DNA from: Phoronis australis
Taxonomy: Eukaryota > Animalia > Phoronida
DNA length: 64,000 nt
Direction of reading: 5' to 3'
Assembly (NCBI GenBank): GCA_002633005.1
Contig: NMRA01000025.1
Span: forward strand, 1,444,548 to 1,508,547
Shown in pieces: positions 4,633 to 34,098 of the stretch. The position numbers and the translations under genes were made by a program. The stretch's first letter is position 1. Every line of letters begins with the position of its first letter. The notes beneath the pieces were generated by a model. The model searched no databases and had not been told where the DNA came from. It was given only the letters and a program-made list of their open reading frames with translations.

Positions 4633-5580
4633 TAGGCGGATTTAGGGGGGGCANCTTCACTGTGCAGTGAAGAAAAGTACTTCATTTTTTAAAGAAAATG
4701 GAATTTAAGTGACCATGAAAAACAGAAGCTGCTGGTAAGATGTGAATTTTAATCGAAGCCTTTGTGAATCACTCAGAAACTTATAATTCTCTCTTTGTCA
4801 AACCTTAACTTAAGACGATTTCGAAAGCAATGTGCGCACCGATGGGGGGCTCAGGGGGCTCGAACGAGCCCCCCAATTTGGCGAAGTGGGCGAAAAGGTC
4901 CGCCTGAGAGAGACAAAAGGTCCGAGAAAATGAGACAAAAGTCCACTAAACAAGCACAAACACGCAATTCACAGTGGTGCACCAGTTTTTTTTTCTTTTC
5001 TTTTTTTTTACTCCGCCGGCTATTTTGTTACCAAAAGGTCCACAACGCTATAAATTCGAGCCCCCCCATATTGAAGGCTGGGTGCGCGCATGCATTCATT
5101 AATGCCAACACAAAAAAACTGATTTGGTCTTTTGGGCATTTGAAGACTATTTCAAATACGACAAATTTGTTACAAACTGATTGCACAAAATATAAAAAGT
5201 GTAACAAGCATTGCAAAAGGAAGTAGGTTTCGCGCGCAAACGCTGTGGACCGTAAACAAGTAAGTCTCTTAGTATCAAATTACGAGTGAAGTCATGGTGG
5301 TGCAGTGGTAAAGCACGCACGGTCTATCTGACAGGTCGTGAGTTTGAGTTAATTACAGTTTTTCGAGTTTGACGCGTTCTCGTGTTGTTTTTTCTTGGAT
5401 AATACTCCAGGAATCAAGGAAAATGCTTGATTTTTAGAGGAAAAACAGAAAAATTTTCATGGACGGGAGAGGGGCAAACCTCCCCCCCATTCGGTGGCAT
5501 GCGCATCTACAATCGTGCTTTACGCAAATGTTTACAGACAAAATGTTTTCCCCCCTTGTGATATCTTAGATCCGCCACTG
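4633..5580. mobile_element. MITE with GGCGGAT...ATCCGCCACTG termini, containing a nested TGCGCGCACC-type MITE (~4831-5092)
   Basis: Terminal inverted repeats; body closely matches 39200-39940; nested part matches 21691-21933 inverted; same terminal family at ~2870-3156, 3870-3986, 13382-13590, 26896-27048, 47708-47861. Confidence 0.6.
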
Positions 5581-6610
5581 ATACTTGACGCAAACGCAGA
5601 TTTTTCGTTCTACAGAATGCTTACACTCTGCCGCTGCGCAATTTAGATGGCGCTGTAGAAGAGTGGATCGGATAGATTCCTAAATTCACAAATGACTATT
5701 CTGATGTTATAATAAAATAGTGACAGCCACGACTAATGGCCACACTGCGCAGACCAGACTCAGCACAGGCTAATCCGCAAATATACGTACACACTACCTT
5801 CCATTCCACCTCGTAGGTACACAAACAGTTTAGACATGTGCCTACCCGCCATCTGTTGTACACAAAAAGACCATTTGTTTTCTTTTGGCTGTTTTATAAA
5901 AGCATTGCTGTCATGGAGTAGCCAAACGCAGCAAACAAAATTGACGCGTCAGACTCGTTGAATAATTTTGTAACCACATTATGTTTGGGCCTGATTTATC
6001 AAAAGTCGTACAAGAGGGTCGTCCTGGATTACACAGTGATTAGAACTCTCCGGAGGAAAGAAAGCGCGTTATTTTTGAAATGTTAAGCACATTTTCTCAT
6101 AGGTCATGACGGAAACCGTCGAGGCGCATAGCCGTGGAAATATTCCTTAATTCGAAATTGAAAGGCCATCTCCAAGAAACGGGATTCTGTGGGGCTAAAA
6201 ATTGACCAGACAATTTTGCTTTATGCACTCGCACCGATCTTTCTTGTCTTTGATTGATGTCCAGAAGGTGACTAACTTAACATCACGGATCCACGGATAT
6301 TTGTCCACTTTATCCAATTTTCTTCCGTCGGAGTTGTAGCCCAGCGCAGCAGTAGCACTTCCTTCGTATTGGAAGGACGAATAGAGTGATGCAGCCGATG
6401 AACTATGTAGAGAATTCTGCAACTACAACAACGAACATGGCACGAAAACGCCAGACTTCAAAAGTTCTTGGCGGATATTGTGGCAAGTGGGTAAAAATAG
6501 GGCACTCTTCCGGTGCCGCTGTGTAACCTGGGTCGGCATTCAGTGACAGTTAGTTATAATCTGTCCGTCTATCATGAAAAGTACAAGCAGGGATCCATCT
6601 TTTTTTTCAG

Positions 6611-6827
6611 ATTTCCCGGAAACAAGGAAGAAGTCATCAGACAAATCTGCATAGCTTGGAGACTGGCTAACCCTAATGCACAACTAAGGGTGTTCATTGA
6701 GCATCTCCCTGATAGCGTAAGGAACGAGATTGGAGACGTTATCAAAGGAATACATAATCCGCATCACCAGCGCAGTCGCGCACATAGTCGTATATCATTG
6801 GACTCTCTGCCAGCCAGTGACGTGTAG
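6611..6827 (+). CDS. Paralog A, death-domain exon 2 and C-terminus (ends ...LPASDV*)
   Basis: T-tract cAG acceptor matches the phase-2 upstream donor; FPGNKEEVIRQICIAWRLANPNAQLRVFIEHL fits DD helices 4-6 with the conserved Trp; TAG at 6825-6827. Confidence 0.8.
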
Positions 6828-8840: not shown

Positions 8841-8848
8841 GTGCCGTC

Positions 8849-8898
<50 letters not shown>

Positions 8899-15153: not shown

Positions 15154-15219
15154 ATGCACCAGCTACATCACCTCATTACGCTGTTGCGGGTCACGGTCTT
15201 CGTGTGCAGCCCTATCACG
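15154..15219 (+). CDS. TNFR-ZU5-UPA-DD receptor (paralog B) exon 1, signal peptide
   Basis: gcaaaATGc context; MHQLHHLITLLRVTVFVCSPIT; ACG|GTAAGG donor, phase 0 matches the CRD exon. Confidence 0.7.
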
Positions 15220-15422
15220 GTAAGGTCAGACGGATAAGGATACCTATCATTATCACCGTGTAACCTAAAGCAAAATGGTGACATAAAAACTTCATTCGGC
15301 GTTTAATCTTTATTTTAGTCACATTTCTATTTCTTGGTTGAACTCCGCACAGAATTTTGAAGAAATTTTATCACATTTATTGAGTTTTATCGACTGTCAG
15401 CTTAAGCCGCTGAGGAGGACAG

Positions 15423-15432
15423 GGGAATTTCC
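15423..15432 (+). promoter_or_regulatory. NF-kB-like site in intron 1
   Basis: GGGAATTTCC matches GGGRNWYYCC. Confidence 0.4.
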
Positions 15433-16234
15433 AAAATGAATGACATTCAAATGGTGGATTTTTGGGGAAATTTGCCAGTTTCGGATGACGACGCAAGTTG
15501 TATAATTGTCAATCATATATAGGCGAAGTCCAGCCTTCATCGTTAATATTAGGTCTTTCATACTAAGAAAAGGAGTTTTTGAGTTTTCGGTAAACTCTTA
15601 TAAACTTCACTTTAATTCGTGTTGTCATAAAATTTTACTTGGTATTAGAGTATGCCGGATCTTGCGGGAGATAACATGTTCGGATTACTTCTATGGCGGG
15701 CACAATTGGGTCGTATGTCATGACGGTAGAGTTAATTTATTTAAAAGGAATGTTTTAGTTTATTAACGTATTAGTTTTGTTTTTTGTTGGAGGCGTCCTG
15801 GCTAAGGTGAATGGTGTCTTTTCACCCTGCATTTAGACTTATTTTTACTCTTTCCGTAAGCTTTTCCGTACGTTTCGTGAGACTGTTAAGCACCCTACAG
15901 TGATCGCATTTGTTCGGAAGCCTGTGGATTCCCTCGTCATCAATAAAATTCCACCTTTTTCAACACAGTTTAGTCGCTAGTTACCAGGGAAAACTTCAGC
16001 TGCCGCACTGTGATTTATGAAAAAGTTTTTTGAACGACCCTTGCCGTGTTCTTTTACATATATTTATTTGAAGCAAAATATTTCACCGTACAAAAAAGTA
16101 GAAAACAGATACACGCAGGCATCACACATCATAAACACACCCGGGATCAGAAAAATATCAAAGACGAAAATTACACAAATAGATGAAACCTTGCCGTGCT
16201 AGGTTATGCCATAGGCAACTTCAAAAACCAACTA

Positions 16235-16631
16235 AGGAGGGAATCAACAATTGGTCGGACTTCAAAACCACTGGCCTGTATTTCAAAACCAGTCGGCTGG
16301 ACTGCAAAATCAAATGGCTGGTGATCAAACGTGTTTTCCGGACTTCAAAAACTATCTGTCTGGACCCAAAACAGGATGGCCGGCGCTATAAGCAATTGGC
16401 TTGTGATTTGTTCGGCCATTGTGTTTGAGCACTGGCCAAGCCGGCCGTTTTAGGTCCAGCCAACCAGTGTTTTGGGTGCCACCATCTGATTTTGAGGTAC
16501 CGGACATCGCGTTTTGAGCCGGTCCGACCATCAAGTTTAGAGAACCGGCCATTAGGTTTTGCAGTCTAGCCAACTGGTTTTTAAGTCCGCGCATGTGGTT
16601 TTGAAGTCCGGCCAGTTGTTGATTCACCCCT
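16235..16631. mobile_element. MITE between two diverged ~200-bp direct repeats (~15860-16055, ~16670-16895)
   Basis: ~36-bp TIRs AGGAGGGAATCAACAATTGGTCGGACTTCAAAACCA / TGGTTTTGAAGTCCGGCCAGTTGTTGATTCACCCCT. Confidence 0.65.
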
Positions 16632-17473
16632 TGACTCTGAAATTAGATTTATTGATACCGTTTTTTAAAGCTTTTTTGTACGTTTTTGAGACTGTAAACC
16701 ACTTTACAAGGAAAGACCTTGCAGCGATCGCAGTTGTTCAGAAGCCTGTGGGCTCCCTCGTCATCAAGATAACTTTGATTCCCTTTTTTTAACACAGCTT
16801 AGTCGCTAGTAATCAGGGAAATTTTTGTGCTGCCCCATTGTGATTTACAATTTTTTGAACGTCCCCTGCCTTGTTAGGTTATGTCGTAGGCAACTTCAAA
16901 ACTCTGTGTAGTATCGTGCCCAGTGGGCGGGCCTGGTAATCTTCGATATAACAAAGTGTAGTTCTGTGGGGAGCGACAGTGTCGAATCCCGAAAAAGACA
17001 ACGTAGGCTAAGCGTTCCACAGCCAGTGAGTGAGTGCCAATTTGCCCAATATTCCATTGCGAAGAAGAACGGGAACATACCCCTTGGGCATCATTCCAAT
17101 ACCAGAGTTGCTGCAGTACGCAACTAGGAGGTGACAATATCAGCTATTGGCTGACGCCTAGCTGCCTCTCTATCACCTTTCATTTTGTCAATTACCGTTT
17201 AGAGTTTAGGATGTATGTATTTGTGCTACGCACTATTGTGCGACTTTCAAGTTCTGGGTTAAGCGACTGGAGCTCCTTAGGATTTGTCACATTTTGTGTA
17301 GACCCGGGAGTCGATTTCACCTTGTCCTGGAGGTAGGCTATTGGAAACTGATAAGTGGTCACGTGACACCCCATTGAGTATTGTTTACACTACCAGGGTT
17401 TTTCTGTTATCATCATGACGCGCGTAATTTCCATAAGTGGAATTACACGTGGTACCAAAATTTTATTTTTCAG

Positions 17474-17804
17474 TCAGGAAACGTATATGTCTACGAAGGG
17501 CGCAACTGCAGCGAATGCCCCCCGGGTCACCTGGTTCGACACCATTGCACTGAGAGCCAAAATACCGAGTGTGCTCCTTGTCCAGACGGGACGTATTCAA
17601 ACGCGCCAAACCCTTCTATCAGATGTAAACCATGTCGGATTGACTGTCCCAAGACGAATCGAGATCAAAGCATTGTGTTAAGAAATTGTACACACACAGA
17701 TGATATTATTTGTTCCTGTAGAGAAGGGTTGTGGTTTGATAACGTAAGAGGTCTCTGTCTACCGCATAGCAAGTGTCCACATGGATTTGACGTGGTTAAA
17801 AAAG
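17474..17804 (+). CDS. Paralog B exon 2, TNFR cysteine-rich domains
   Basis: CSECPPGHLVRHHCTESQNTECAPCPDGTYS...CKPCRIDC...NCTHTDDIICSCREG...CLPHSKCPHG is typical TNFR/NGFR CRD spacing; T-tract cAG acceptor, G|GTAAGA donor. Confidence 0.92.
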
Positions 17805-18410
17805 GTAAGACCTTAAATGCAGAAGCAGAAGTATGGAGAGCCACAGCGGAAAAGTTTCCAGGAAACAAATTTTCATGGTCTGCTGCAATGAAGTTTTCCT
17901 AACGTGTGAAAATTTCCTGACGTAATAAATATTTTGTCCTGGCGTCATAAATTATAGGGTCCTGGCGCGATAAATTATAGGGTCCTGGAGCGATAAATTT
18001 TGGATTTGCGTATATTTTTTTGGTCTTGCAGGGAATTTAATTCTTGAATAGAAAATTTTTGTCCTAGATTTTTTCCGCTTTGGTTTCAGCAGTTCAACAG
18101 ATTTGCGCTTAAAAATGTATGACGATAGGACGTTTTGGCTATCCCAAAGGTATCTGCAATAGAGCAACATATGTGCTCGACCCTCGCTCAACAAAATTCT
18201 CAGCAAAATGGGTGTTAATTCTTCTGTCATTTTATGAGGTTCTCTTTAAAAGTTTCTAAGAATTAAGTCGATAAATTTATTTGAACATCACCGGATATGT
18301 ATCCCTATCCTACTCTGAACTGGTGTGTTTGTTTTGTGTTTGTTGTTTTGTCATTTGATCAGTTTTGAAAATGACTAAGTAGCTACACAAGAATTGTCTA
18401 AAATTTGCAG

Positions 18411-18488
18411 GTACCTCCAATTCTGACGTAATTTGTGGTAGGACTGTCAAAAAGTCATGGTCAAGACCTGAGAGTACCACAACACCAG
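18411..18488 (+). CDS. Paralog B exon 3, end of last CRD and S/T stalk
   Basis: Splices to give KKGTSNSDVICG (GTxxSDxxC CRD ending), then RPESTTTP; phase 1-1. Confidence 0.85.
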
Positions 18489-18616
18489 GTAAAAGTTTGC
18501 TCGGTGCTTGACTGAATAAAGAATAAACAATAATAAACAATTTTCCGTGAAACAAATTCACGTGTTTGTATAAAATGTGTTTTGTATTTAGTAGTTTTGT
18601 GTAGAAATTTATTATG

Positions 18617-20033
18617 AAAGTCTAGACAGATAGGCTGCTAATTTTTGTAACTGAGTATAATCAAGATGGGCAGCGCAGCACTGAAAAAAGTGGATTAGCT
18701 AAAGCCCCCCAGCCACACTGTGGTGCGCCGCCCCTTGACCATGGGCGGCGCAGCACTGAAAAAGTGGGGGTTATAGCCCCCTCTCCCCTAGCCCCCTATG
18801 ATGCGCCCCCCATGATAATTGATGATAAGGATGAGTCTCAAGTCACGTGGTACTCGATCGTATCTTCGACGGAAGTTTTTCTATTATGGGATTTAAAGCT
18901 TCGATAAAATCTAATAAGAAGAGTGAGTTTTACCCGATTACTTGAAAAAAGACTACTTTTTAAAAGCTTCACCTTTGTTTAAGCAGATCAACAGCGAATA
19001 GTGTATTCATACTGACAAATACCGAGTTTACTACCTAAAAGATGCCCATTGTCATGTCTGTTCTCTGTTTCCTGAACTATTACCTCTTGATTCAAATTTT
19101 TAATGCTGTCTTTTGTTTCATTTTTTGTTTTGTTTTGTAGTGTTAAGTAGTACAAAAGTTTCCACCGGATACAGACGCATTGATAAAACTATAGACATTT
19201 TGATTGGTATTTCGGTGGCTTCGCTCATTGTATTAACCCTCACGGTAAGTCAAGGTCACACTTTGTTAAGCACTGCAAGTGTCAGTTAAGTTCGGAAATC
19301 AATTGTTACGAAACCACTTAAAGCNAAAGTCTAGACAGATAGGCTGCTAATTTTTGTAACTGAGTATAATCAAGATGGGCAGCGCAGCACTGAAAAAAGT
19401 GGATTAGCTAAAGCCCCCCAGCCACCCTGTGGTGCGCCGCCCCTTGACCATGGGCGGCGCAGCACTGAAAAAGTGGGGGTTATAGCCCCCTCTCCCCTAG
19501 CCCCCTATGATGCGCCCCCCATGATAATTGATGATAAGGATGAGTCTTAAGTCACGTGGTACTCGATCGTATCTTCGACGGAAGTTTTTCTATTATGGGA
19601 TTTAAAGCTTCGATAAAATCTAATAAGAAGAGTGAGTTTTACCCGATTACTTGAAAAGAGACTACTTTTTAAAAGCTTCACCTTTGTTTAAGCAGATCAA
19701 CAGCGAATAGTGTATTCATACTGACAAATACCGAGTTTACTACCCAAAAGATGCCCATTATCGTGTCTGTTTTCTGTTTCCTGAACTATTACCTCTTGAT
19801 TCAAATTTTTAATGCTGTCTTTTGTTTCATTTTTTGTTTTGTTTTGTAGTGTTAAGTAGTACAAAAGTTTCCACCGGATACAGACGCACTGATAAAACTA
19901 TAGACATCTTGATTGGTATTTCGGTGGCTTCGCTCATTGTATTAACCCTCACGGTAAGTCAAGGTCACACTTTGTTAAGCACTGCAAGTGTCAGTTAAGT
20001 TCGGAAATCAATTGTTACGAAACCACTCAAAGC
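18617..20033. repeat. 708-bp near-identical tandem duplication split by a single N (probable haplotype/assembly overlap); second TM-exon copy at 19850-19953
   Basis: 18617-19324 vs 19326-20033, N at 19325, few SNPs. Confidence 0.85.
19141..19244 (+). CDS. Paralog B exon 4, juxtamembrane region and first part of TM helix
   Basis: Long T-tract tAG acceptor, ACG|GTAAGT donor; ...DKTIDILIGISVASLIVLTLT; phase 1-0. Confidence 0.85.
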
Positions 20034-21469
20034 GGTTATAAACCCTCCAAGACCAACTATCGATTCAGACCACTCACCGATACGAAACTGGTTTCAGGTT
20101 GTTCAACTTGTAGATGATTCCAGCGCTTCGACAGAACAGTTTGTTACTGCTCGAGGCGAGGGTCAACTGTGACAAGTTGGCTTGTCACGGCGGGTCATTT
20201 TTGCGCAGAAATCGTACTGCCAGTTCTTTGCAAACCCCCGAGACCACTTCTTATCCGAGTGATGAACACGTTAAGACCGAATTTATAGCGGACAAGTGAT
20301 CTATATCTTAAGTTTGGTTCTTGGCGGAACACCGTTTTATAATCGGTTCTATAAGTGTTCTTCATGGAATAACACTTAAATACTATCGGCACATATGTGT
20401 TCCCTTCATATGGCAAAATATATTGCTCTTCATAATATTGCCACAGACGTCCAGAGACGATTGAAAATGTTCGTTCATACGCTCAGTTTCTTTTTCAAAT
20501 TTCTTCAAGAAGAACTAATATTCGCTTACAAAGGCAATCTACATGCAAATGGTAAAGAGAAATGAGTGTTCATAGTCTGCATTAAATTCAAAACATCAGG
20601 GGACTCTTTACTGCAGGTCGTGAGTTGTGCCGTACCCAAGACCGTAACATCGCATTTTTTTGCTGAAGTTCATAAGAGTGCGCATAAAAACTTCTTCAGC
20701 GGGGTGGTGTCATTTGCACCCAGGCGCCAAGACGGGCACCAACGCTCCTTCAGACATGCAAAAACTAAATGTGGTCCTAACCATAAGTATGTAGTACCCC
20801 CTCCCCCGGTCGACACCAGTTATGCCCTTCCTCCTGTGGCCAATGCAGTCCTGCTCTGCTTGCTTATCGGTTGAGCACAGTCAAAGACAGCCGCCCTTTT
20901 TGGTTGCTTCAGTGGGAAGGCGCCGTCATGACTGGGCCCAGGCGAGGCCCCCCAACCCGACCCCTATTCCCATTTGCATGTGTAGATGTCTGTCTCAACA
21001 TAAAACAGAGTAGTCCATTTTTAATGACCTGTAGGTTTCGAAAAGAGGGTCATCATCCAATTGACAGGCGCCAATGGAAAGTTTCCCAAAAGAACACCCA
21101 CTTCATTTAAGTACAAACTGCATGTTCTAAAGTTCGTCATCTTTCAGGAAGGAGCACCCACAAAACAAAATACGAAAAAGATAAAAACTGGAAAAGGTAT
21201 TACGAAACAATTTCTTGTACTTATTGAAGTAAGTTTAGGGAGTGGACCGAAACAAAAATCTCCTGTCAAGAATGAATAAACCACGACCATACCAAGGAGC
21301 GCAGTTTGGTATTGTTATTCCCGTGCCAAAAACTCTCGATATTCGCCTTCCGAATTGATTTTCTTGTTTCGTACCTATAAAAACGTAATAGTTACGACTG
21401 AACGTGCGACCCTCAATAAAATTTCTCTCAGCTGTATAATTCACCACATAATGAACACTCTGTTTGTAG

Positions 21470-21518
21470 TTTGCAGGCGTAGTCTTATTGGTGAAGCGGC
21501 GAAAGAGCATGAGTGCAG
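21470..21518 (+). CDS. Paralog B exon 5, end of TM helix and basic stop-transfer
   Basis: tgtttgtAG|TTTGCA..., FAGVVLLVKRRKSMSA, G|GTCAGT donor; phase 0-1. Confidence 0.75.
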
Positions 21519-22500
21519 GTCAGTGAGAAATTCAATTCCTTTCTCAGCAGGATGGTACAGCAACGTGTCTCAATTTTCAAACTGCTTCTAATGTTTTTGG
21601 TTATTCCTTATCCATATAAGATAAACTTGTAGGCTCTAATAAATGCTACCAAATAACAATCCAGAAATACCTCTCGTTGTTAACAGGAAACATGCGCGCA
21701 CCCAGCCTTCAATATGAGGGAGCTCGAATTCCTGACTTTGTCGACCCTTGCTAACAAAAAAGCGGGCGGATTAAAAAAAAGAAAAAAAAAACAAAAGAAA
21801 CGGGAGCACCTCTGTGAATTGCGCGTTTGCGCATGTTTAGTGTGGACTTTTGCTTCAGTGTCTAGGTCTTTTTGTCTCTTTGAGGCGGACCTTTTTGCCC
21901 ATTTCGCCACTTCGCCCCGTGGGTGCGCGCATGGGAAAATAAAAACTATTACTCCCACCATCCGTTTGACCTACATACATCATTTGAATAAAAAGATTCG
22001 ATTAAGAAAAGAATCGATAACTGCAATGTTGAAAGTGACCCGCGTTCCAAGATCTCTTTTTCTTATTCACTACTTCATGAAGAATTGCTTGTGAGAATTT
22101 TTTTATTAATTTCTCACTGTGCCATGAGTAAAGTGGAACTTTAATTACGTAACAAGTTCATTTAGATCTTTTTACAACGATGCGGGTCTAAATGGGGAGT
22201 CTTCTGTTTTGCATAAGGCGGGTGCATACTGTTTGAAGTGGATGCAACCCACTTTATAAGGTATTTGGTGACTAGCTGGTCCTGTGATTTTAAAGATGTT
22301 GAAAGACAGATCCAGAAATCCAAGTGTGCAGATTTAGAAGACAGAACGTGGAAATCTAACGACAGTCGCACTGTCTTAGGTCACTGAGTACACTGAGAGT
22401 AGGATAGCTGAATGTGAAATCAAATCTATCGAGTTAACACTTGTTTAGACTCTGGTGGCAAGGTACTGACTGTGTTCATAACATGTTTTTACCTTTCTAG

Positions 22501-22551
22501 ACCGAAGTATGTTCGGAAGCAGTGAAGACGAGTTAATCTCGATTATGCCAG
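22501..22551 (+). CDS. Paralog B exon 6, cytoplasmic micro-exon
   Basis: cctttctAG acceptor, G|GTATTT donor, 51 bp phase 1-1, (D)RSMFGSSEDELISIMP. Confidence 0.6.
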
Positions 22552-22889
22552 GTATTTACACGTGTTAGAAGTAATTTCCGTCCTAATTTTTTGTTACGAA
22601 ATTATTTTGCGACAAACAGATTCAATGACGCTTCCATTAGAACCCTTATTTATTAATTACACATTTTTTTCATTTACAACTTAACAGAAATTTTCGTATA
22701 AATAATAATAATGTTAAGGTAACTTCTAACGTTCGTGAAGTATTTTTACTGATTACTAACCATATCTTGTTCAGATAAAATAAGATCAATCTTAATATAA
22801 ACTGTTGGTGGCTTTGTGTCTTAACAATATATTACTGGTCAATACGCAGAGAATCATGTCTCATATTGTTATTTACCCTCAAACAACAG

Positions 22890-22934
22890 AGTTATCAGTC
22901 ACGAAAGACTGCAAGGCTCCATTTCTGAAGGCAG
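22890..22934 (+). CDS. Paralog B exon 7, cytoplasmic micro-exon
   Basis: caacAG acceptor, G|GTATTT donor, 45 bp phase 1-1, (E)LSVTKDCKAPFLKA. Confidence 0.55.
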
Positions 22935-23918
22935 GTATTTTCGTTGTAAAATGAAATGTAAATAAATTTGAGACTATTTTGTAAGATATGGGCGATATTC
23001 ACGGCATTTCGTGAATCTACTCAAAAATAGTTTGATATAGAACCGCTTTAAATCTAGATCGAAAAGTTTACCGAGGATCACAAATAGCCGAAATGAAGCC
23101 CAGATACCAAACGCGTAACTGGTCATTTGCCATATTCAGTGCTTTTTATTCTCAATACTAAAAGATAATGTCATGTTTTTTCATCTGAAAATTGCCGGCA
23201 TATGTTTACAAGCGTAACTCTGGCCAGATATCACACTAAGTACGTCCACACACATACAAGTTACTCCTAGAACGAGTTGTCGCCAGGTTTGGAGGCTGTG
23301 TGGACGCTATTTAAACTAGTTCAACTACCCCATTTGTGATAGACAATCTACCTTATCAAGGTGGGGTAACTTGTTCTAGGGTTACTAGTAGCGCTTCTAA
23401 TTCTTGTGTGGCCGCAAACATGGAGCAAGGCGGTGCATGGTTACATAAAGACAGTTTTTGCGAGCCGTATTCGCATTAAGCCTCAATTACACGAGAAACA
23501 ACTGACACGGCGCAGCTAACACGGAAAAGCTGATCAAGTAAAAGTCGGTGTGTGTAAACACCACTGACACGGAGCAAGTGACACCGCGCCGGCCAGTTTT
23601 CACCAGTTTGATAGGTAGAGCGAGTTGTACTGGATCAGTTGCTCCAGTTTAAACTACATGTCGAAGCACAGTATTGGCCGGGACAGGGTGGAAAGGGGCC
23701 ATCTTTCAATGCGTTTGTGCAATAGCGTATACTGGGTTGATCAGTTGGGTATAGATCAGTAACGTTAGGACCTCGCTAAAAGGAAGTCTTAGCGAGATTA
23801 TGTGCATGTAAACAATATCACTCTTCTTTAGTCATGGATAGTTGAATTGTGGCACAATATTAGAAGTACGATAGGATATTTCCCGTGGAACTCACCTACG
23901 CACTGCATACATTTTCAG

Positions 23919-24793
23919 ACACTCAGAAAACCGAAGCCTTCAACAGTACACTTCATCAACGTGAAATCCCTTCAAACACCATTGACAATCTTGAGACATC
24001 CAGCTGTCGTGTGTTTAGATATGACCACAGATACACTGAAGTCCCGGGAAGATCAAACTCCTTGGAAAGTTCTGAAGAAATAAATGAAAATGAGAAGAAT
24101 TCTAGTACCGGCCGTAATACATCGCCACAAACGCATGCGAGTAAAACTGCTCCGTGTTTTCCAGTATTTTACAACTGGCCTAAGGGGAAAGACTTCGAAA
24201 CTCATGAGCACTACAAGACATATCAGTACGACAGCGCAGGTGGAGATCTCGTGTTGTCGTCCAGCGTCAAAGTCTCAATTCCTCCGAAATCGATTAAGAG
24301 CGGGGAGGTTTTTGGGATTAAGGGTGGACCGGTAAAGAATGATCGGGAGTTTCACGATTTCTTTAGGAGCAAAGAAGATGAAGACGTGATCTCTCCTGTG
24401 TATCAGATCGACGTCGACGAGAGGAAACAGTTCAGTGGTCATGTTAGATTGGTTCTGAAGCACTGTATTCAGAATCCGGAGGCATGGAAGACAATAAAGG
24501 TCTATCACTGTCCCTCCGCGGATACCCTATCCCAACTGACGGAGGTTCCGCTGAAATCTAAAAACAACAACGTGGTTCAACCGATGTATTACGTGATCGA
24601 AAACAACCAGACCGTGTCTGTCTATACCAGGAAATTCAGCGTTTACATTGCCAGTGGCGATAGAAAAAGGAACACAAATATTAAGGCACATATTTACGCG
24701 AAACAGTGCACCAAGATGGAGGAATTGCCGAACTCTATAAAGATGAGAGTTTACATGGGCGACAGCTACCAGCATATCACAGAAAACTTTACG
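23919..24793 (+). CDS. Paralog B exon 8, low-complexity linker, ZU5 domain and start of UPA-like domain
   Basis: YDSAGGDLVLSSSVKVSIPPKSI...VISPVYQID...FSGHVRLVLKHC...TRKFSVY matches ZU5 hallmarks (GGxL, V-x-IPP, SPV, F-x-x-x-V-x-L-x-L-x-HC, xFS); ttttcAG acceptor, ACG|GTACAC donor. Confidence 0.88.
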
Positions 24794-25712
24794 GTACACT
24801 TTCTTGAAAATCTGTTAATATGAACATGGGCGAGTAAAATCTTGAGCCGTTGCCGTCTAGTAGACGAAATAAAACCATCTGACCTAAATATAATAATGCC
24901 TCGGTTTCGTAAAGCTTGCCGATCCGATGAGTTTGCTGTCGGCGTCAACCGACAGTCAGATGATCGATAGATTATTTGGAGCGCCGACGGGACGCCTTCG
25001 TCAAGAATCCTCATTCGCTACCCAATGAATACCTCCATATGTTATCAAGGCATAATGTTAAGGACTAACAACTCAGTATGCTAAAAATCTGCCACTCATT
25101 TTCTTACACGTCTCGACTCTATTTCTATCGGCATTAGAATCTTTACTATTGGATTTATGCTCCATCTCTATCTAAAATCAGACAAGGAAAGTGTTGATTT
25201 TAGAAAGGAACACCCTTCTCTATTAGTGGGGCGAACTCGTTCGCTTCATTTTTGTTAAAAGCGTAGTTTAAAGAATTTTAAAGCGTGATTTCCGTAAATT
25301 AGCAGATGCGTGGAATCACACCCACTAACCGCAGTAGCAGCCGAATCCCAAGCCTAATAGCAGATAGCCTTTTAAGCTTATTTACGGTTAGGTAAGACCT
25401 TATCAAAAAGTCTGTGTATTTAGGCAATTATCTACCGTACAAAATTACAGGTTTAAACTCAGAAGTTATCAGAAGGCCCACAGAATTTGATTTTTGACTT
25501 CTTACAAATCTGCCAATAATTGGGAAACATGACCTTGGCTTCTTGTAAAATTTATCAAAAAAGTAAGGTTCATTCATAGCAACACTGGTTAAAATAACAC
25601 GACTAAATTTTGTTTAATATAAATGTTCAAGGAGAAATTGCAATGACGATGTTATAGTTTTCTAAATCATCATGTCGCTTACGTTTTATGAAAATATTGA
25701 TTTTTTATGCAG

Positions 25713-25886
25713 AGATTTCAAAGGGACATGGAAGATGAGGGATACAATAGGGTTGAGTGGAAAGATTTGATCTTGCCGAAGGAAATTGACTCAGCTACAA
25801 GAATCAAAATATCGCTTGAACCAAATAACTGGAAGCACGACGATGTAAGGAGAGTCACCGGGCAAGAATTGTTACCCCTGAACCAG
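25713..25886 (+). CDS. Paralog B exon 9, UPA-like
   Basis: tatgcAG acceptor, CAG|GTAATT donor; homologous to 123-296. Confidence 0.85.
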
Positions 25887-26259
25887 GTAATTATTGAATC
25901 GGGGCAGTCAAGGAAGAAAATGAGACCAAATGGAAGATGAAGTGGAATCTCCTAAAAGGAGACTTTCGCAAGTCACGACTTGTGACGCACCAAAGGGTTC
26001 CTAAACAAGTACCTTTCTGCCTGTTGATTTTATGTATTGGTTCATTCGATCGCTTTTTAGTGACGCCTGTTGGCCAGTTGAGCAACTGTCCCATTTTAAG
26101 CACTGAACTGTCACTAAGATAAAAACAATCTTTATTCTACACAAAATCAAAATGTTCCAAATGTTTAGACACAACATTAAGATTACAACACCAGAAATGC
26201 AACAGCTATTGAAAGCTATACAGCCGATCCCATTTAAGTTTTGTAATTAAGAGAATTTC

Positions 26260-26660
26260 ATCTACAGGAAGTTCAATAGCATTCTGTACTAGTTCAATAG
26301 GATTCTCAATAGAAAGTTCCATAGGATTCTGTATAAAGTTCAATGGGATCTTATATAATATTATGTCGAATTTCCTACTGGAGTTGTTATAGGTTCCAAA
26401 AAGTATTATGTAAGCATAATAAATCAATAGGATTCTATAGGAAGTTCAATAGGATTCTATAGGAAGTTCAATAGGATTCTATAGGAAGTTCAATAGGATT
26501 CTATAGGAAGTTCAATTTGATTGTACATAAAGTTGAATAAGATTCTATAGGATGTTCAATAAGACTCTATTGGAAGTTTAATAGGATTCTACAGTAAGTT
26601 AAATAAGAATCTATAGGAAGTTCAATAGGTTCTTATAGAATAGTCCTTTTCGATCCTATA
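26260..26660. repeat. 22-bp minisatellite (CAATAGGATTCTATAGGAAGTT)n with degenerate flanks
   Basis: About four perfect units at 26425-26516 plus decayed units; absent from the paralog A intron. Confidence 0.8.
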
Positions 26661-27676
26661 GAATTTCCCAATGAATTCACTATAGGCTCAAAAAGTACTA
26701 TATAAGCATAATACATAGAACAATATAGGCAATGTCATCCTTACAGGAAATTGTTTCTGGCACTGCAATGAGCAGACTTTGTATATAACTTAAGGTGGAA
26801 TAGCCTTGCAGAATATTCTGAGAGTATTCTATAAGAATTTCAATACGATTCTATGAGAAGTTCAATACTATGCTGTAGGAAGTTCAACGGGATTCAGTGG
26901 CGGATTTTTTTTGATAATAAGGTCAGCAAACCCAAAAATTCGAGACCACTGTATCCCTACATTTTGGGCTGGGCGTACGTATGTCGCAAAATTTTGGTTA
27001 TTCCTGTGCCCTGGCCTCCCCTAACTCAAAATCCTGGATCCGCCCCTGGGATTCTATAGAAGGTTTAGGGGGATTCTGTTGGAAATTCAATAGAATCTTT
27101 TAGAACACTCCATAGAATATGATTTTGGATCCTTTAAAACTTCCTATAGTTGGGGGGATGCTTTATGTTCAAAAATTTGCTTTTTACATAATATGTAAGG
27201 CAATGTAGAACACACACACAATATTAAATATAATTATTAAAGGAAATCATATCTGGCAATGTTATGAGTAGAACTAGTATATGCTTTAATATAGGAAATC
27301 CCTTCGGAACAGCAAAATGATGGAGCAACATATTACAACTCACCTGAATATTAAAATTTAGAAAAATTAATGACTCATAAGAGCTGAAGACAAAAACAAA
27401 CTGATATCTTACTATATGCTCATAGGATAATTGTTTGAGGAAACGTTTCGAAATCAGATTTCTGAAAATTTTCCTATAGGATTTTTTTCTATAGGAATTC
27501 CTATACGAAATATTGATCCTATAGGAAATCCTATAAGAAATCAATATTCCTTTAGGAATTCCTATAGGATCCTATAGATTATTTTCGTAAGAGCCTTCGC
27601 ACTCTATCTGACCCATGTTTGGTGGCTCAGTTCGCCGTTTGCCTGTTTCACTTTGTTTTCTGATATTCACCAACAG

Positions 27677-27925
27677 GAAGTGACCGTGGGGCACTTCGTG
27701 GACCATCCGACACCCGTATGTGCAGCTGAGTGGATCTTGACTAACTTCCAGAGCCAAAACTACTTCAAGGCTAACCTGATTATCGAAGTGACCCATGTCC
27801 CTCCAGAGCCACAATTCAATTTCTTACGTTTCTTTAATTTGAGAGACAATGACCGTCGCATAAAAACCACCACGGAAACTCCATTAATCATAGACTTCAA
27901 GCTATGTGACTTGGCAATGGCACAG
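27677..27925 (+). CDS. Paralog B exon 10, UPA-like (open copy)
   Basis: caacAG acceptor, CAG|GTGAGG donor, 249 bp, EVTVGHFVDHPTPVCAAEWILTN... Confidence 0.8.
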
Positions 27926-28569
27926 GTGAGGCTTTCTCAGACATTAACCTATAACGTGANGGGGGATTCTGTTGGAAATTCAATAGAATCTTTTAGAACA
28001 CTCCATAGAATATGATTTTGGATCCTTTAAAACTTCCTATAGTTGGGGGGATGCTTTATGTTCAAAAATTTGCTTTTTACATAATATGTAAGGCAATGTA
28101 GAACACACACACAATATTAAATATAATTATTAAAGGAAATCATATCTGGCAATGTTATGAGTAGAACTAGTATATGCTTTAATATAGGAAATCCCTTCGG
28201 AACAGCAAAATGATGGAGCAACATATTACAACTCACCTGAATATTAAAATTTAGAAAAATTAATGACTCATAAGAGCTGAAGACAAAAACAAACTGATAT
28301 CTTACTATATGCTCATAGGATAATTGTTTGAGGAAACGTTTCGAAATCAGATTTCTGAAAATTTTCCTATAAGATTTTTTTCTATAGGAATTCCTGTAGG
28401 AAATATTGATCCTATAGGAAATCCTATAAGAAATCAATATTCCTTTAGGAATTCCTATAGGATCCTATAGATTATTTTCGTAAGAGCCTTCGCACTCTAT
28501 CTGACCCATGTTTGGTGGCTCAGTTCGCTGTTTGCCTGTTTCACTTTGTTTTCTGATATTCACCAACAG

Positions 28570-28818
28570 GAAGTGACCGTGGGGCACTTCGTGGACCATC
28601 CGACACCTGTATGTGCAGCTGAGTAGATCTTGACTAACTTCCAGAGCCAAAACTACTTCAAGGCTAACCTGATTATCGAAGTGACCTATGTCCCTCCAGA
28701 GCCACAATTCAATTTCTTACGTTTCTTTAATTTGAGAGACAATGACCGCCGCATAAAAACCACCACGGAAACTCCATTAATCATAGACTTCAAGCTATGT
28801 GACTTGGCAATGGCACAG
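28570..28818 (+). pseudogene. Second copy/allele of exon 10 with an in-frame stop
   Basis: Same splice sites, but TGG is TAG at 28624-28626. Confidence 0.7.
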
Positions 28819-29399
28819 GTGAGGCTTTCTCAGACATTAACCTATAACGTGACTCAATTAAGTGTTGGCCAGGGCAATTTTTCACAAAATACAATTGATC
28901 CAGATCAGTTAAAACTGTCAAGTGACTGAGCTCACCGTCGTTCAACAATAAGAATTGCCCTGTCCCTTTTTACTCCTTATTCAGGATAGAAGTTAATTCT
29001 GGACTTCAGAAGAACTGGCATTTCGTTAGTGGCTTGACCCGACGGATCAATTTAGGTGTTGCGTATCATAACACTCGCTGGTTCCCTGCGTGTCCGCTAG
29101 GGGTAGAGGACACGCAGGTATCCTTTAATTTGGATGGTCGAATTTTCAACAGGTGGTGTTTTATGCAAACAAACTGGCATGATGAACGGAGGAGGTGTAA
29201 AAGTGGAATTTTCAGTTTGTGCATGGTCTGCCAGTGTTCACATAAATGGGTGCTTAATTGGGATATGTTCAAGAAATGTGAATCGGAAAGTTGTGGTTGT
29301 GCCTTTTCATGTGCACCGGTTAAACTGGCCCCGCGGCTATTAAACACTACAGCAGAAACGACATACTTAGTGCAGTAGAGAGAAAACAAACAAATAAGT

Positions 29400-30410
29400 A
29401 CATCCATTCATTCATGCATGCACACCTCAGGAGAGACCATTCTCGTATCTTGTATTAAGTAAACAACTCAACGTGAACAATATGGAAATTTCCCATTTCG
29501 CAGAGAAGCTGTCATATACAAAGTTTTTATATGCAATTAATTTTTCAGTATTATAGTACTCATAAGTATATGTAACGAACTTGTGAAAATTAGGTATATT
29601 TCTGTGACATCTCTCCTTGTAAATGTACTGTTTGGCTTGTAGGAGCAAAATGTTAAACAGAAAATTGTGCGTCTCAGTCATAAAGTCCAAGAAAAAAACG
29701 TTCGTAAGAGAGACAGTTTGGAAGCTAAATAAAACATTTCTGAAGTAGCTTTCCGAATTCCTTCCAGAAATCTCGTACAAGGCAACATTCCCAAAAAAGG
29801 TGTGACAGCGTTTCTGGAGCTTTATTACAACAGGAACATAAGTTAGAATCCCGAACACGAATATTGACTAAAAAGGTATTTGTTGCAATAATCCTTTGTA
29901 GTATTCTAAATTGGAACCATCTAATGATGGGATCCTTTGTAATTTCATTAGGCAATGCGTATATTTTCTTCCAATCTAAACTCCTAACTCTATTTCCCAT
30001 TTACACTCTGACTTAGAAGATTTCTTAACGTCATTAAAGACTGAACAAATATGTCTACAACCCTTCAAATCTTTCCTTAAGTGAGTAATTGCTAAAGGCA
30101 TGCAAGGAGAGTAGGCGTTAACATTTTTAAATTTACTTTGATATAGACTTTTTTGAAACCTTCTTAGAACAGAAACAACACCGTTCTATTCTACAAAGTT
30201 GGTTTGACATCGAACCTATTTTCCATATGGTTCAAACTAACGAAATGATCATCAGAAGTATTCATATCTCTAATAAGTCTTAAGCCTTTTACAAACCAAG
30301 TCTTATAGAAAACACTTATGCTTCCGATCACCAAGTTACTATTAAACCACAAAGGTTGATTCAAAAAGTCTTTTTTACTCACAAAAATTATTAGAGAGAA
30401 AACTTGGTTC
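29400..30410 (-). mobile_element. 3' fragment of an L1/Tx1-clade LINE (ORF2 zf-RVT region), frameshifted
   Basis: WKKIYALP..RWFQFRILQRIIATN..LCSCCNKAPETLSHLFWEC..VRDFW is the typical C-terminal zinc-binding region of L1/Tx1 ORF2. Confidence 0.8.
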
Positions 30411-30416
30411 ACAAAA

Positions 30417-30841
30417 GTGCCGTTTACACTACAAAAGTTGACACGGATCATCTGTCATGACACGAAATGAGTTGTTCTGCGCAAGTATGTGTCTAAACGG
30501 GACTGAACTGGAGCAAGTTGACACCGCGGTGACAACTTTTGCCACCCGTTTGTGAGGCAGAGCAATTTGCGCTAGAACATCTTGCTACTTGTCAATTATG
30601 TGTCTAAACGTGAAACTGGGGCAAGGCGGAAAAGATCATCTCTACTGCGCTTGTGTAATGACCTAAATACGGGTTCTCTGTCTCTTCGTGATATGTAAAT
30701 CTGCGGATGTGTGTTCCACTCTCCAGCCTAGAATTTTCGTCTTGCCACATTTAGTGAGTTGTGTGTAAACGGACGCTTGACACCGATCAATTTGCTATAT
30801 GTCAGTTGCGCCGCGCCAAAAGCTGATGTCTAAACGGGACT
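30417..30841. mobile_element. Harbinger-like MITE (copy at ~60268-60671; partial inverted copy ~23500-23740)
   Basis: TIR-like GTGCCGTTTACAC / GTCTAAACGGGAC; clear similarity to the copy in PNP intron 1. Confidence 0.6.
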
Positions 30842-32362
30842 AACGATGTTGACAGAGATACAAATCGTTCCTGCATTTGTAAAGCTAATCAGTGACTGTC
30901 GAAATTGCATCAACCAGTGATAAAACGTACTGCTGAATTATACCTGCGTGTCCTCTATCCCCTAACGGACACGCAGGGGTCCAGCGAGATGATTACACTC
31001 AATAACTATCAGGAGGAGGACTGGCAACGGTACTGGCAGGTGGTGCTGTTTCAAGATTGTAACGAACTTTCAATGCCTTTTAAGTTGAGAACTTAGTTTT
31101 AATTTGACGAAGAAATAAGCTAAGGCAAGTTAACTTTTATAACGATAAGTAACTGGCAGAAGGCAGGCTCAAACAGCAACTTGAATATTGGTTTGATCAC
31201 TCATCAATATTATAGAGGCATAGCTGGCCATGTTTGTCTGAGACCCACATGTCACTAAATCAGATTTTTGTTTTAGACTTGTGATGAAATTGGCCTCAAG
31301 CTGTAGCTTAGCTAAAATGGGTAGGATTTCTGCCAGTGAGCTTGGAAACAACTTTGTATTCTCGGCGCATCATTTTAATCTCAGAGTATGATCATGTGGT
31401 ACGCATCAACTGCATGCTTGAATAAAATCGACCCGTTTCAAATAGATGCGCGTGCCAGTCGAGGTTAGCATCCGGGATCTTTGAGGTTACTATGGGAATC
31501 AAAGCTGGTCAGTAGAAGTACCATATTGCCGCGCCATTAGGCCCATGGGCGTCTGTGCGAAACTGCGCTTATATGCTAAACTTAGGCGCATGAGTTAATA
31601 TGTGAACCATTGGGGTAAACAAGGCATTATTTCGAATATAGGCCCATGAACTATTTGCCATTTTATTTCGGATGTAGGCCCAATGTTCACATGCCATTTG
31701 TGTGCGCTGCTTTAACAATATTTCGAATAATTCTGGTGGAACACTTATTGCGTATTCAAAGGAAAATTCATTTACAACTGACGCTCGTGCATGTTTACGA
31801 ATATGCGCACAACTCCAGTTCTAGGGTATATGGTATAATGTGACTCATAGTGGCGTAATATTTCTGTTGTTCTCAAGCACTGGAATGCACACGGTACGAC
31901 CGTGGCCTGGCCAATGTCGTTATTCTGACCCCGCCAGCGTCAGCTTAGTAGCAAACCTGGTAGTAAGAGGCAAGTCAAAATTCACAATTACTAAAGCTAG
32001 ATTTCTATTTTGTGACTTAAGTACGTGTTATCTCATTTTCATAACTGATTGGATAGAATTGTACGACAAGTGGAGCTTTATAATTTATACTTTCCAATGA
32101 ACTACCCAAAATACTGTTTGGGCTGTAAAACCGGTTGTTTACATTTGAGATTCGCCCGTATTAGTTAGTACCAGACTCACGATCTTTGATAGAAGGGTCA
32201 TACGTAGCGGTGGCAGATTTAGGGGGATGGGGCAAGGGGCCATGCCTCCCCTAAAATTCTCCCAGGTTCCATGAACAGTGAAAATTAAACGAAAACCTTA
32301 TTGTAGTACGCAGACAAAATTGCCATAAAGAATATCATGAACCATTCCTTTTCCAACTTCAG

Positions 32363-32523
32363 ACTGGCTTAAATGAAATGAAATTCTTGGTGAGTGATGT
32401 GCCTAAGGACGATTGGCAAAAGTTACTGGATATTGTGGCTAGAGACATGCGAGAAGCTGAGATTAGACCTTTTGGCAAAACATTAGGCAACTCAGAAGGT
32501 CAACTGGACAAGCATGAGTACAG
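32363..32523 (+). CDS. Paralog B exon 11, death domain part 1
   Basis: ttcAG acceptor, AG|GTATTT donor, 161 bp; ...WQKLLDIVARDMREAEIRPFGKTLGNSEGQLDKHEYR. Confidence 0.8.
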
Positions 32524-33854
32524 GTATTTAAAAAGTAAACTCAGCTCTGTGTTATAGGAGAGTATATTAATGATTCATCTCAGAATTAAGCTAACCAGCT
32601 GTTTCTGCATACAGATTAACATGATAACAGATGACCAAAGCGACTTCTGGTGGCTGACTATTCCTTAAGTCTGCACTTCTTTTTTGACCTAAAAAAGAGA
32701 CACATTTTTGTGAACTGACGAAAGGCACATAACCCTATCTTCATTAATTAGTCCCTAACTTTTCACAATGATTGCAACAGGTTTGTTGTATCACTTGACA
32801 CTAACACAGTTTTTCGTTCTACCAGGAAGAGATCTCTTCCTGGTTCTACAGAATGCGTGCACTCTGCCGCGGCGTCATTTAGGTGGTGCTGTAGAAGAGT
32901 GTATCGAATACTTTGCTAAAATCACAAATTACTGTGCGTACACAGGCAAGCCAGGCTTCTTCCTGACGTTCTGCCATGACGTTCTTTGAATGTATGGTCG
33001 ACACTACCTTCCATTCCACTCCGTAGCCGGTACACAGACAGTTTAGACATGTGCCTCCACGCCATCTGTTTAGCACAAAAAGACCGTTTTAGTTCAAGTT
33101 GGTTTTCTGTTTTGGCTGTTTTAAAAAAATCATCAAAATAACTTTCAATTGATGCGTCAGACTCGTTGAATAATTTTGTAACCCCATTATGTTTGGGCCT
33201 GATTTATCACAAAAGTCGTACCATAGAGCCGTCCTAGATTACACAGAGATTAGAGCTTTCCTTAATTTGTCCAGCAGAGGAAAGAAAGCGCATTATTTTT
33301 GGAATGTCAAACACATTTTTTCATAGATCATGTTGGAAACCGTCGAGGTTTATGGCCGTGGGAATATTCCTTATTTCAATCGTTTAAATGTGTCGAAGCT
33401 GAATGGCCATCTTCAAGAACCAGGATTCTGCGGGGCTCAAAATTGACCTGATATTCTTGCTTTATTCACTCGCACGAACTTTCTAGTCGTTCATTGGATT
33501 GATGTCGAGAAGGAGACTAACTTGACATCGCGGATCCATGAGTATTTGTCAATTTTATCCAACTTTCTTCCGTCGGAGTTTGGAGCACGTAGCAACAGTA
33601 ACACTTCCTTCGCCGCAATGGAAGGACAAAGAGTAATGCAGCCGACGAACTTTGTAGAGAATGAACATGTTGAACTCGACTGGCACGAAAAGTGCTTGAC
33701 GGATATTGTGGCAATTGGGTAAAAATACATGAGAGCAGGATTCCGGTGCCGCTGTGTAACCTGGGTCGGCAATCAGTAACAGTGAGTTATAATGTGCCCG
33801 TGTATCATGAAATTTACAAGCAGAGACTCTCAAAGCAATTGTTTTTTTTTTCAG

Positions 33855-34098
33855 ACATCGCGGTAACAAGGAAGAAGTCATCAGACAAATCTGCATAGCT
33901 TGGAGACTAGCTAACCCTAATGCACAACTAAGGGTGTTCATTGAGCATCTCCCTGATAGCGTAAGGAACGACATTGGAGACGTTATCAGAGCAATGCAAT
34001 CGAGGTGGCCTCGGAGATCACCTCAACCGCTCAGTCTCACACATGTCACACATTTCCGTCGTAGATCATGGGCGTCTCCTACGAGCCAGTGCCAATGA
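33855..34098 (+). CDS. Paralog B exon 12, death domain part 2 and C-terminus
   Basis: T-tract cAG acceptor; HRGNKEEVIRQICIAWRLANPNAQLRVFIEHL...SQCQ, TGA at 34096-34098; the 12 exons sum to 2427 nt in frame. Confidence 0.8.

Follow-up and report, generated by a model that had tools for sequence, protein, structure and literature searches.

In Phoronis australis, a gene within the window (the whole 64-kb stretch of DNA analysed) encodes a predicted single-pass receptor of the TNF-receptor (TNFR) family, with cysteine-rich repeats outside the membrane and a ZU5 domain, a UPA-like region and a death domain (DD) inside. Since its ZU5 domain keeps the Phe-Ser site of human NLRP1 and PIDD1, this is likely a self-cleaving death receptor, best read as nearer to UNC5CL, PIDD1 and NLRP1 than to the non-cleaving UNC5B. 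The fuller reading, in which ZU5 would be cut between Phe481 and Ser482 and clustering would free a UPA-death-domain fragment, appears to us evenly balanced.

The gene model comprises 12 exons, all with GT-AG introns, which give an open frame of 808 aa with no internal stop and an end at 34098, confirming the in-frame joining proposed by the first-pass annotation (Table 1).

Table 1. Features of the receptor gene and its surroundings, in window coordinates.
Feature	Position	Strand	Evidence or remark
Tandem paralogue, equivalents of exons 9-12	123..6824	+	Splice sites and phases shared, open frame
Paralogue exons	123-296, 1327-1590, 4209-4369, 6611 to stop 6825-6827	+	
NF-kB consensus sites at 14997, 15075 and 15423, around the start codon	14997..15432	.	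GGGRNWYYCC
Exon 1: start codon, predicted signal peptide (aa 1-22)	15154..15219	+	Frame, hydropathy
Exon 2: TNFR cysteine-rich repeats (aa 23-133)	17474..17804	+	Pfam TNFR_c6, PDB sequence matches
Exon 3: end of third repeat, Ser/Thr stalk	18411..18488	+	GT-AG, in frame
Exon 4, first copy: stalk, first half of membrane helix	19141..19244	+	In frame
Exon 4, second copy, likely other haplotype	19850..19953	+	Duplicated block; RNA joint to exon 5
Exon 5: end of membrane helix, KRRK stop-transfer	21470..21518	+	Frame; RNA joint from exon 4
Exon 6: cytoplasmic linker	22501..22551	+	RNA joint to exon 8
Exon 7: doubtful, 45 nt, phase-symmetric	22890..22934	+	GT-AG, in frame, yet skipped in reads
Exon 8: low-complexity linker, ZU5 (Pfam stretch 24227-24505), first UPA strands	23919..24793	+	
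Candidate distal catalytic His438 (CARD8 H270 / NLRP1 H1186 type)	24506..24508	+	Strand order, spacing
Predicted self-cleavage site Lys480-Phe481/Ser482	24632..24640	+	Superposition on NLRP1, alignment
Exon 9: UPA-like region	25713..25886	+	RNA joint from exon 8
Exon 10, open copy: UPA-like region, linker	27677..27925	+	Alignment to Lingula XP_013409010.1
Exon 10, second copy, in-frame stop at 28625	28570..28818	+	Likely another haplotype or sequence error
Exon 11: first half of death domain	32363..32523	+	Frame, Lingula alignment
Exon 12: second half of death domain, tail, stop	33855..34098	+	Frame, Lingula alignment

The Pfam model TNFR_c6 matched the ectodomain in three stretches (E 4.1e-20, 72.3 bits against a cut-off of 29.4), in line with the approximately three repeats claimed earlier, and 36 PDB sequences, nearly all of them TNFRs, matched the repeats at E<=0.01 (best OPG, 1.3e-16; DcR3; DR6). 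The single membrane helix followed by KRRK, another earlier claim, was borne out by one internal 19-residue hydropathy peak (2.52) at about aa 178-201. The signal peptide is predicted from hydropathy alone (12-residue peak of 2.32, with an Arg inside). About 480 residues lie between the membrane and the death domain. Matches to TRAF-motif patterns were at chance level and were dropped.

The ZU5 domain was recognized by Pfam (24.1 bits, cut-off 21). When an AlphaFold model covering the ZU5 part (pLDDT 75.7) was searched with Foldseek, the top match was the cytoplasmic domain of UNC5B (3g5b, E 5.5e-7), and together these matches uphold the ZU5 assignment of the first-pass annotation. Fold scores were higher for ankyrin and UNC5B (Z 11.2-11.6) than for CARD8 (9.1) and NLRP1 (7.5-7.9). 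A PDB search with the single ZU5 sequence returned no matches, and one with a ZU5 profile found ZO-1 and UNC5B.

A search of 1.84 billion proteins gave 12 matches that are 21-34% identical to the window protein. The best was Lingula anatina XP_013409010.1 (P0001, uncharacterized LOC106172725), which carries TNFR_c6, ZU5 and Death and is collinear with model aa 345-745; the nearest named relative is a brachiopod protein at 24-29% identity. For the UPA-like region claimed earlier, the fold was seen only in the Lingula relative, of which residues 460-799 (Atlas model) align to UNC5 ZU5+UPA with a TM of 0.55-0.56, but the P. australis sequence itself gave no UPA match in Pfam or among PDB sequences, nor did a three-sequence profile of exon 10. 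Only 2 of 1000 shuffles reached the score with which the UPA-like regions of P. australis and the Lingula relative align. The full-length fold of the Lingula protein had a mean pLDDT of 48.2 and was poor outside ZU5, and therefore tests neither UPA nor closure.

For the death domain, no Pfam match was obtained when exons 11 and 12 of the window gene were scanned singly, and exon 11 of the tandem paralogue scored E 0.054. The assignment made earlier is nevertheless sustained by homology, since the alignment of aa 680-780 with the Lingula death domain, itself confirmed by Pfam, scored 80 against 25.5 +/- 4.3, a value reached by 0 of 1000 shuffles. The best PDB matches of the Lingula death domain were Fas, PIDD-CC and RIPK1. 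PDB matches obtained with a death-domain alignment were discounted as direct evidence because the Lingula row drives them.

The ZU5 domain ends in K480-F481/S482, a site missing from the first-pass annotation. F481 (model residue 164) was the last residue aligned to residue 1212 of NLRP1 (6x6c_E), and when cleaved NLRP1 and several GAIN chains were superposed, the alignments stopped exactly at F481; for the Lingula relative, they stopped at F605 of H-F-T. NLRP1 cleaves itself at F1212, S1213, using the triad E1195-H1186-S1213 (PMC9700037). The Phe was present in 13/13 aligned sequences, as was Ser/Thr at the following position (P. australis and 12/12 relatives). A His at -2, giving H-F-S/T, was found in nine of the 12 relatives (9/13 aligned sequences), and the P. 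australis copy has Lys480 there instead. PIDD1 cleavage requires the -2 His (PMC9162469); CARD8 tolerates its loss and uses His270 (PMC3210808). By strand order and spacing in the model, His438, which lies at a strand end 15 residues past the conserved His423, is a candidate equivalent of this distal His of CARD8 and NLRP1. A His occupied column 438 in three of the four sequences without the -2 His versus none of the nine with it, and one relative had neither. The Fisher p of 0.014 for this exclusion is overstated, because the tree traces the pattern to only about two independent lineages.

The first-pass annotation had proposed that ZU5 gates the death domain. In a gate model of this kind, the receptor is uncleaved and its ZU5-UPA-DD is shut as in UNC5B or ankyrin until opened by ligand. 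The best fold matches, UNC5B and ankyrins, are indeed non-cleaving, Lys480 replaces the His that PIDD1 needs, and UNC5B and ANK2 are known to adopt the closed supramodule (PMC9162469); all the same, we regard an uncleaved receptor as unlikely, given that the Phe and Ser/Thr are invariant in all 13 sequences in spite of the low identity of the relatives, and that UNC5B itself carries Leu where they have Phe (PMC3210808). Cleavage is kept in UNC5CL and not in UNC5 (PMC10084454). With the cut-site residues kept as in UNC5CL, PIDD1 and NLRP1/CARD8, the PIDDosome-like output also raised earlier is therefore favoured over the UNC5B-type autoinhibitory gate; the dependence-receptor idea found no support in the analysis.

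In a self-cleaving receptor, Ser482 of the folded domain would attack the bond just before it, and His438 would act as base instead of the -2 His; for this copy we give the step somewhat better than an even chance, and the likelihood would be higher in relatives with H-F-S/T. The cut halves would be held together by the last ZU5 strand and the death domain kept quiet. Release might be triggered by binding of a TNF-type ligand or by an NLRP1-like destruction of the membrane-bound half, and the UPA-death-domain fragment set free when ligand clusters the receptor would be 327 residues long. Its UPA could lower the threshold of death-domain assembly with FADD/RAIDD/RIPK/IRAK-type partners, leading to NF-kB or caspase output; PMC7794386 describes UPA as promoting filament formation. 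Taken as one claim, the steps from release through partner assembly to output are proposed by analogy and fall a little short of even probability. Closure and cleavage of ZU5-UPA-DD are not mutually exclusive.

RNA reads, examined over part of the gene, supported two of the 11 predicted joints and one skipping joint. Three reads of X3 joined the second copy of exon 4 to exon 5 (19953 to 21470), and exon 8 was joined to exon 9 (24793 to 25713) in one X1 contig, 2 reads of X2 and 4 of X3. Exon 6 was linked directly to exon 8 (22551 to 23919) in 2 reads of X2 and 4 of X3, so exon 7 is skipped or is no exon. Of the earlier 12-exon count, the open frame thus stands, but the reads point to a product without exon 7, of 793 aa with the frame kept. 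The exon 5-6 joint was not among the joints in the reads over the stretch containing it. This and the stop in the second exon-10 copy count against our preferred reading of a self-cleaving receptor. We infer with high confidence that all exons belong to one mRNA. Reads and window sequence disagreed at several sites, and the reads may stem from other alleles or paralogues; those over exon 4 formed two sets, both differing from the window sequence. Within intron 4, a few sense-strand reads covered 20396-21015; depth just behind exon 4 was seen in one run.

Exon 4 is doubled in 708-bp blocks that are 98.6% identical and flank a single N at 19325, and exon 10 in 892-bp blocks that are 99.1% identical and flank a single N at 27960. 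The doubled exons are most likely unmerged haplotypes; real alternative exons were rejected because, in both cases, the near-identical copies lie on either side of one N. The 5' part of the tandem paralogue lies outside the window, and the dN/dS of the gene against it is 0.69 over 594 nt. This value, the stop in exon 10 and the two exon-4 read sets might point to a decaying member of the tandem family that makes no working receptor; such decay is quite improbable, considering that the 808-aa frame is open across 11 canonical introns, that spliced sense-strand reads map to the gene and that the stop sits in a duplicated block beside an assembly gap. It is more improbable still that the TNFR/membrane and ZU5/death exons form separate genes, or that the main product is a decoy receptor whose coding exons end with exon 4 or exon 5: the unlisted exon 5-6 joint would allow it, and the intron 4 reads and the depth behind exon 4 could mark an alternative 3' end, but Lingula XP_013409010.1 holds all parts in a single chain, two coral proteins likewise hold TNFR, ZU5 and Death, in the single-exon relatives P0004 and P0006 the frame of ZU5 also encodes, ahead of it, a hydrophobic helix and basic residues, and the phases of exons 5 and 6 fit together.

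Exact matches to the NF-kB consensus numbered three in the window, all within the 436 bp around the start codon; the chance of this is 1.5e-4, as calculated after the sites were seen. Their position at the gene start suggests an inducible immune receptor.

The architecture is already catalogued in invertebrates. In a coral table of 2016, ten TNFR rows have ZU5, and two of them have TNFR, ZU5 and Death in the P. australis order (PMC4979521 Table S1), although the main text of that paper never names ZU5. The ZU5-bearing TNFRs of Acropora digitifera include 02522Acd and 07000Acd; in 02522Acd, TNFRSF 62-146, ZU5 354-444 and Death 704-775 are spaced nearly as in the P. australis model, whereas the table lists domain hits only and gives no cut site, UPA or mechanism (PMC4979521). 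Lingula XP_013409010.1 likewise has TNFR_c6, a membrane helix, a long linker, ZU5, UPA and Death (24% identity over 414 cytoplasmic columns), but is uncharacterised and differs in fewer TNFR repeats, a longer linker and H-F-T in place of K-F-S. Given these precedents, TNFR-ZU5-UPA-DD is no new chimera; the first-pass annotation had rightly pointed to TNFR+ZU5 in cnidarians and warned that the combination might not be wholly new. In the part of the literature covered, no paper on this receptor was found. Word-based homologue searches were weak negatives: nothing among 349 candidates with the window ZU5, the query itself only among 7046 with Lingula 465-903, and nothing among 4756 with an alignment. 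The whole Lingula protein gave no TNFR plus ZU5 cluster in the Atlas, a blank that says nothing because only clusters of 50 or more are included.

The coral, brachiopod and P. australis proteins may together represent an old self-cleaving class that wires a TNF-type ligand to fragment release, with some lineages, P. australis included, independently swapping a PIDD-type His for an NLRP1-type distal His; this proposal is tentative and we lean against it. If true, a surface receptor would be its own PIDDosome or inflammasome seed. Vertebrate death receptors signal via clustering of an attached death domain, and NLRP1, CARD8 and PIDD1 signal via self-cutting and release of a UPA-death-fold piece. 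A receptor that pairs a TNFR ectodomain with an intact cut site in its cytoplasmic ZU5 would unite both signalling modes in one chain. If the protein cleaves, the coral TNFR group known since 2016 from a domain table would gain a testable function, and the finding would bear on the evolution of death-receptor and inflammasome signalling; if not, it is an ordinary further member of a catalogued architecture.

Fas, TNFR1, DR3-6 and p75NTR resemble the P. australis receptor in their cysteine-rich repeats, one membrane helix and C-terminal death domain. To our knowledge, vertebrate death receptors are without a ZU5-UPA insert. The netrin receptors UNC5A-D are type I membrane proteins with a cytoplasmic ZU5-UPA-DD, the source of the top Foldseek match, but their ectodomain is of Ig and TSP1 rather than TNFR type and their cut site is lost (PMC3210808, PMC10084454). 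Membership of UNC5 was rejected because of that ectodomain, and membership of PIDD1, which has N-terminal LRRs and two ZU5 domains, because of the TNFR repeats, membrane helix and one ZU5. Although none of UNC5CL, PIDD1, NLRP1 and CARD8 has a TNFR ectodomain (UNC5CL has no ectodomain, and NLRP1 and CARD8 are cytosolic with a CARD at the end), UNC5CL, PIDD1 and the FIIND of NLRP1/CARD8 are like the P. australis receptor in that ZU5 ends in F/S at the superposed position, with UPA (predicted in P. australis) and then a death-fold domain after it.

The receptor gene is real and transcribed. The window, at ~40% GC and with spliceosomal introns, is animal DNA, and the first-pass annotation of 12 GT-AG exons joined in frame into 808 residues was reproduced: each exon is flanked by AG and GT, and the frame contains no internal stop.

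Exons of the predicted receptor gene (window coordinates)
Exon	Position	Feature
1	15154-15219	
2	17474-17804	Pfam TNFR_c6
3	18411-18488	
4	19141-19244	
5	21470-21518	
6	22501-22551	
7	22890-22934	bypassed in RNA reads
8	23919-24793	Pfam ZU5
9	25713-25886	
10	27677-27925	
11	32363-32523	
12	33855-34098	

The domains read from the sequence at first pass were assessed by profile and fold searches. The TNFR repeats were recovered (E 4.1e-20, three stretches), as was a single membrane helix (~aa 178-201) followed by KRRK. The ZU5 domain held on both counts, scoring 24.1 bits against a cut-off of 21, and the AlphaFold model of the last 216 residues of exon 8 (pLDDT 75.7) had the UNC5B cytoplasmic domain as its top Foldseek match (E 5.5e-7). 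The claimed UPA and death domain gave no direct match, since exons 9-12, scanned one by one, yielded no Pfam family match of consequence; they stand through a relative, Lingula anatina XP_013409010.1, the best of 12 matches among 1.84 billion representative proteins. This 903-aa protein carries TNFR_c6, ZU5 and Death; over aa 345-745 of the model the two are collinear (pairwise E 2e-27, 24% identity). The score of window aa 680-780 against the Lingula death domain was matched in none of 1000 shuffles and that of the ZU5-to-death-domain region in 2/1000, compared with 948/1000 for a linker control, which showed no match. The Atlas model of Lingula residues 460-799 aligns with UNC5 ZU5 and UPA (TM 0.55-0.56). 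Because the evidence consists of the Lingula alignment, shuffles and model, the window's death domain and UPA are indicated by way of this relative rather than directly. Val occupies the exact exon 8 end position in 9/10 single-exon relatives, as a GT donor would yield (the count excludes the Lingula protein, P0001, and a shorter relative, P0009), suggesting that the relatives share this intron and form a genuine family.

The C-terminal end of the ZU5 is K480-F481-S482 (24632-24640). Where a match of the structure search is a chain that terminates at its own cleavage site, the alignment breaks off at F481 (model residue 164). This residue pairs with residue 1212 of NLRP1 (6x6c_E; Z 7.5, rmsd 3.2, 117 aligned), and the alignments to several GAIN domains and to rat NLRP1 (7crv_C) break off there too. 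Such alignments of the Lingula model end at F605 of its H-F-T. Among the 13 aligned sequences (the window and 12 relatives), F and the following S or T are each conserved in all; His stands at -2, two residues before the Ser/Thr, in nine, and the window has Lys. The window's His438 lies 15 residues after His423, the match of the His shared by CARD8 and UNC5B, where the following strand of the model ends. A His occupies its column in 3/4 sequences lacking the -2 His vs 0/9 having it, a pattern that is suggestive only, because the tree groups those sequences into about two lineages. Relatives P0005, P0010 and P0011 form a well-supported ZU5 subgroup without the -2 His, and the column His of two of them apparently arose independently of the window's. 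CARD8 His270 lies 18 residues past the shared His (PMC3210808), NLRP1 H1186 works with S1213 (PMC9700037), and in UNC5B the Phe is replaced by Leu (PMC3210808).

After folding, the receptor would most likely cut itself at F481/S482, and the halves would remain bound, as do those of CARD8 (PMC3210808). A 327-residue fragment with the UPA and death domain would be set free once a TNF-type ligand clusters the receptor or the membrane-bound half is lost. In NLRP1 and CARD8, UPA lets the C-terminal fragments assemble at a lower threshold (PMC7794386); UNC5CL is a ZU5-UPA-DD protein that is anchored in the membrane and cleaves itself (PMC10084454). Every step past sequence and fold is one that we infer, and we consider the mechanism overall evenly balanced between right and wrong. 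That the ZU5-UPA-DD stays uncut, as a closed supramodule, seems rather unlikely. Two points count against cleavage: PIDD1 requires its -2 His (PMC9162469), and the highest fold scores belong to ankyrin and UNC5B, which do not cleave (Z 11.2-11.6, vs 9.1 for CARD8). CARD8, cut at S-F/S, hardly requires its -2 residue and does require His270 (PMC3210808). The 64 kb contain three exact matches to the NF-kB consensus, and all of them fall in a 436-base stretch spanning the start codon (14997-15432; chance 1.5e-4, computed post hoc), which would fit an inducible immune receptor. A near match to the consensus lies at 15025, inside this cluster.

A tandem duplication (123-9643 vs 25708-37309) includes a paralogue corresponding to the final four exons of the gene. 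In this upstream paralogue, exons 9-12 share splice sites and phases with the receptor gene and the frame is open, with dN/dS of 0.69 over 594 bases. Two blocks are doubled across a single N: 18617-19324 vs 19326-20033 (98.6% identity), holding a second exon 4, and 27068-27959 vs 27961-28852 (99.1%), holding a second exon 10 that contains a stop; we infer that these are unmerged haplotypes. It is improbable that the receptor gene is a decaying copy. Between gene and paralogue, only 4/129 bases differ in the portion of exon 12 that encodes the death domain, far less divergence than in exons 9-11, which may reflect gene conversion or strong constraint.

Four RNA sequencing runs (X1-X4; ~18-19% of each raw run sampled) were aligned to 19326-26250 and 19838-21680. 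The predicted exon 8-9 joint was found in one X1 contig, two X2 reads and four X3 reads (none in X4), and the exon 4-5 joint in three X3 reads; three loose read ends each in X3 and X4 join a diverged exon-4 end to an exon-5 start. Exon 7 of the earlier model was bypassed by an exon 6-8 joint (two reads in X2, four in X3), which preserves the frame and gives 793 aa, and the exon 5-6 joint was absent among the joints listed for 19326-26250. At the joints found, first mates map to the minus strand, as expected for sense transcripts in most stranded libraries. Several mismatches between reads and window mean that other alleles or close paralogues may be the source of the reads. A single gene is therefore supported by this partial RNA together with the Lingula and coral proteins; split genes, or a decoy form, are very improbable. 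At 24341-24346 in exon 8, reads of three runs lose one base and gain another that compensates, and X3 reads have a 12-base in-frame gap at 23998; these would represent diverged alleles or further paralogues. A few sense-strand reads in intron 4 (20396-21015; X2 and X3), along with X2 coverage immediately after exon 4, may mark an alternative 3' end that yields a truncated decoy, or else a repeat.

Elsewhere, the window holds a LINE fragment in intron 10 (29430-30454, minus strand; zf-RVT E 4.4e-8 at 29728-30000), two copies of a THAP-domain element (35545-35940, minus; 52042-52290, plus; 82% identical over ~570 bases) and exons of a purine nucleoside phosphorylase-like gene (~46500-54800, minus strand; PNP_UDP_1 E 2.7e-11 at 46565-46777, the remaining exons recognised by eye).

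Quistad (2014) is said to note ZU5 in coral TNFRs. The cnidarian TNFR-ZU5 combination mentioned at first pass was located in Table S1 of PMC4979521, where 10 rows with ZU5 are all Acropora digitifera TNFRs; 02522Acd and 07000Acd read TNFRSF, ZU5, Death, and the rows for ids 6604 and 18784 are inconsistent. "ZU5" is absent from the main text of that paper as accessible, and from the accessible text of two invertebrate-TNFR preprints (10.1101/2024.07.27.603686, 10.1101/2021.12.26.474206); PMC8195603, in the sections available, covers ZU5 autoproteolysis and TNFRs apart from each other. Full-text literature searches, mostly judged from listings, returned no paper on a self-cleaving TNFR. The architecture is already catalogued but unstudied, and the new point is a predicted self-cleavage site in the ZU5 that is intact and testable. 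Membership in UNC5 or PIDD1 was rejected. The receptor would resemble a death receptor in its working, with a tail of the UNC5CL/PIDD1/NLRP1 type.
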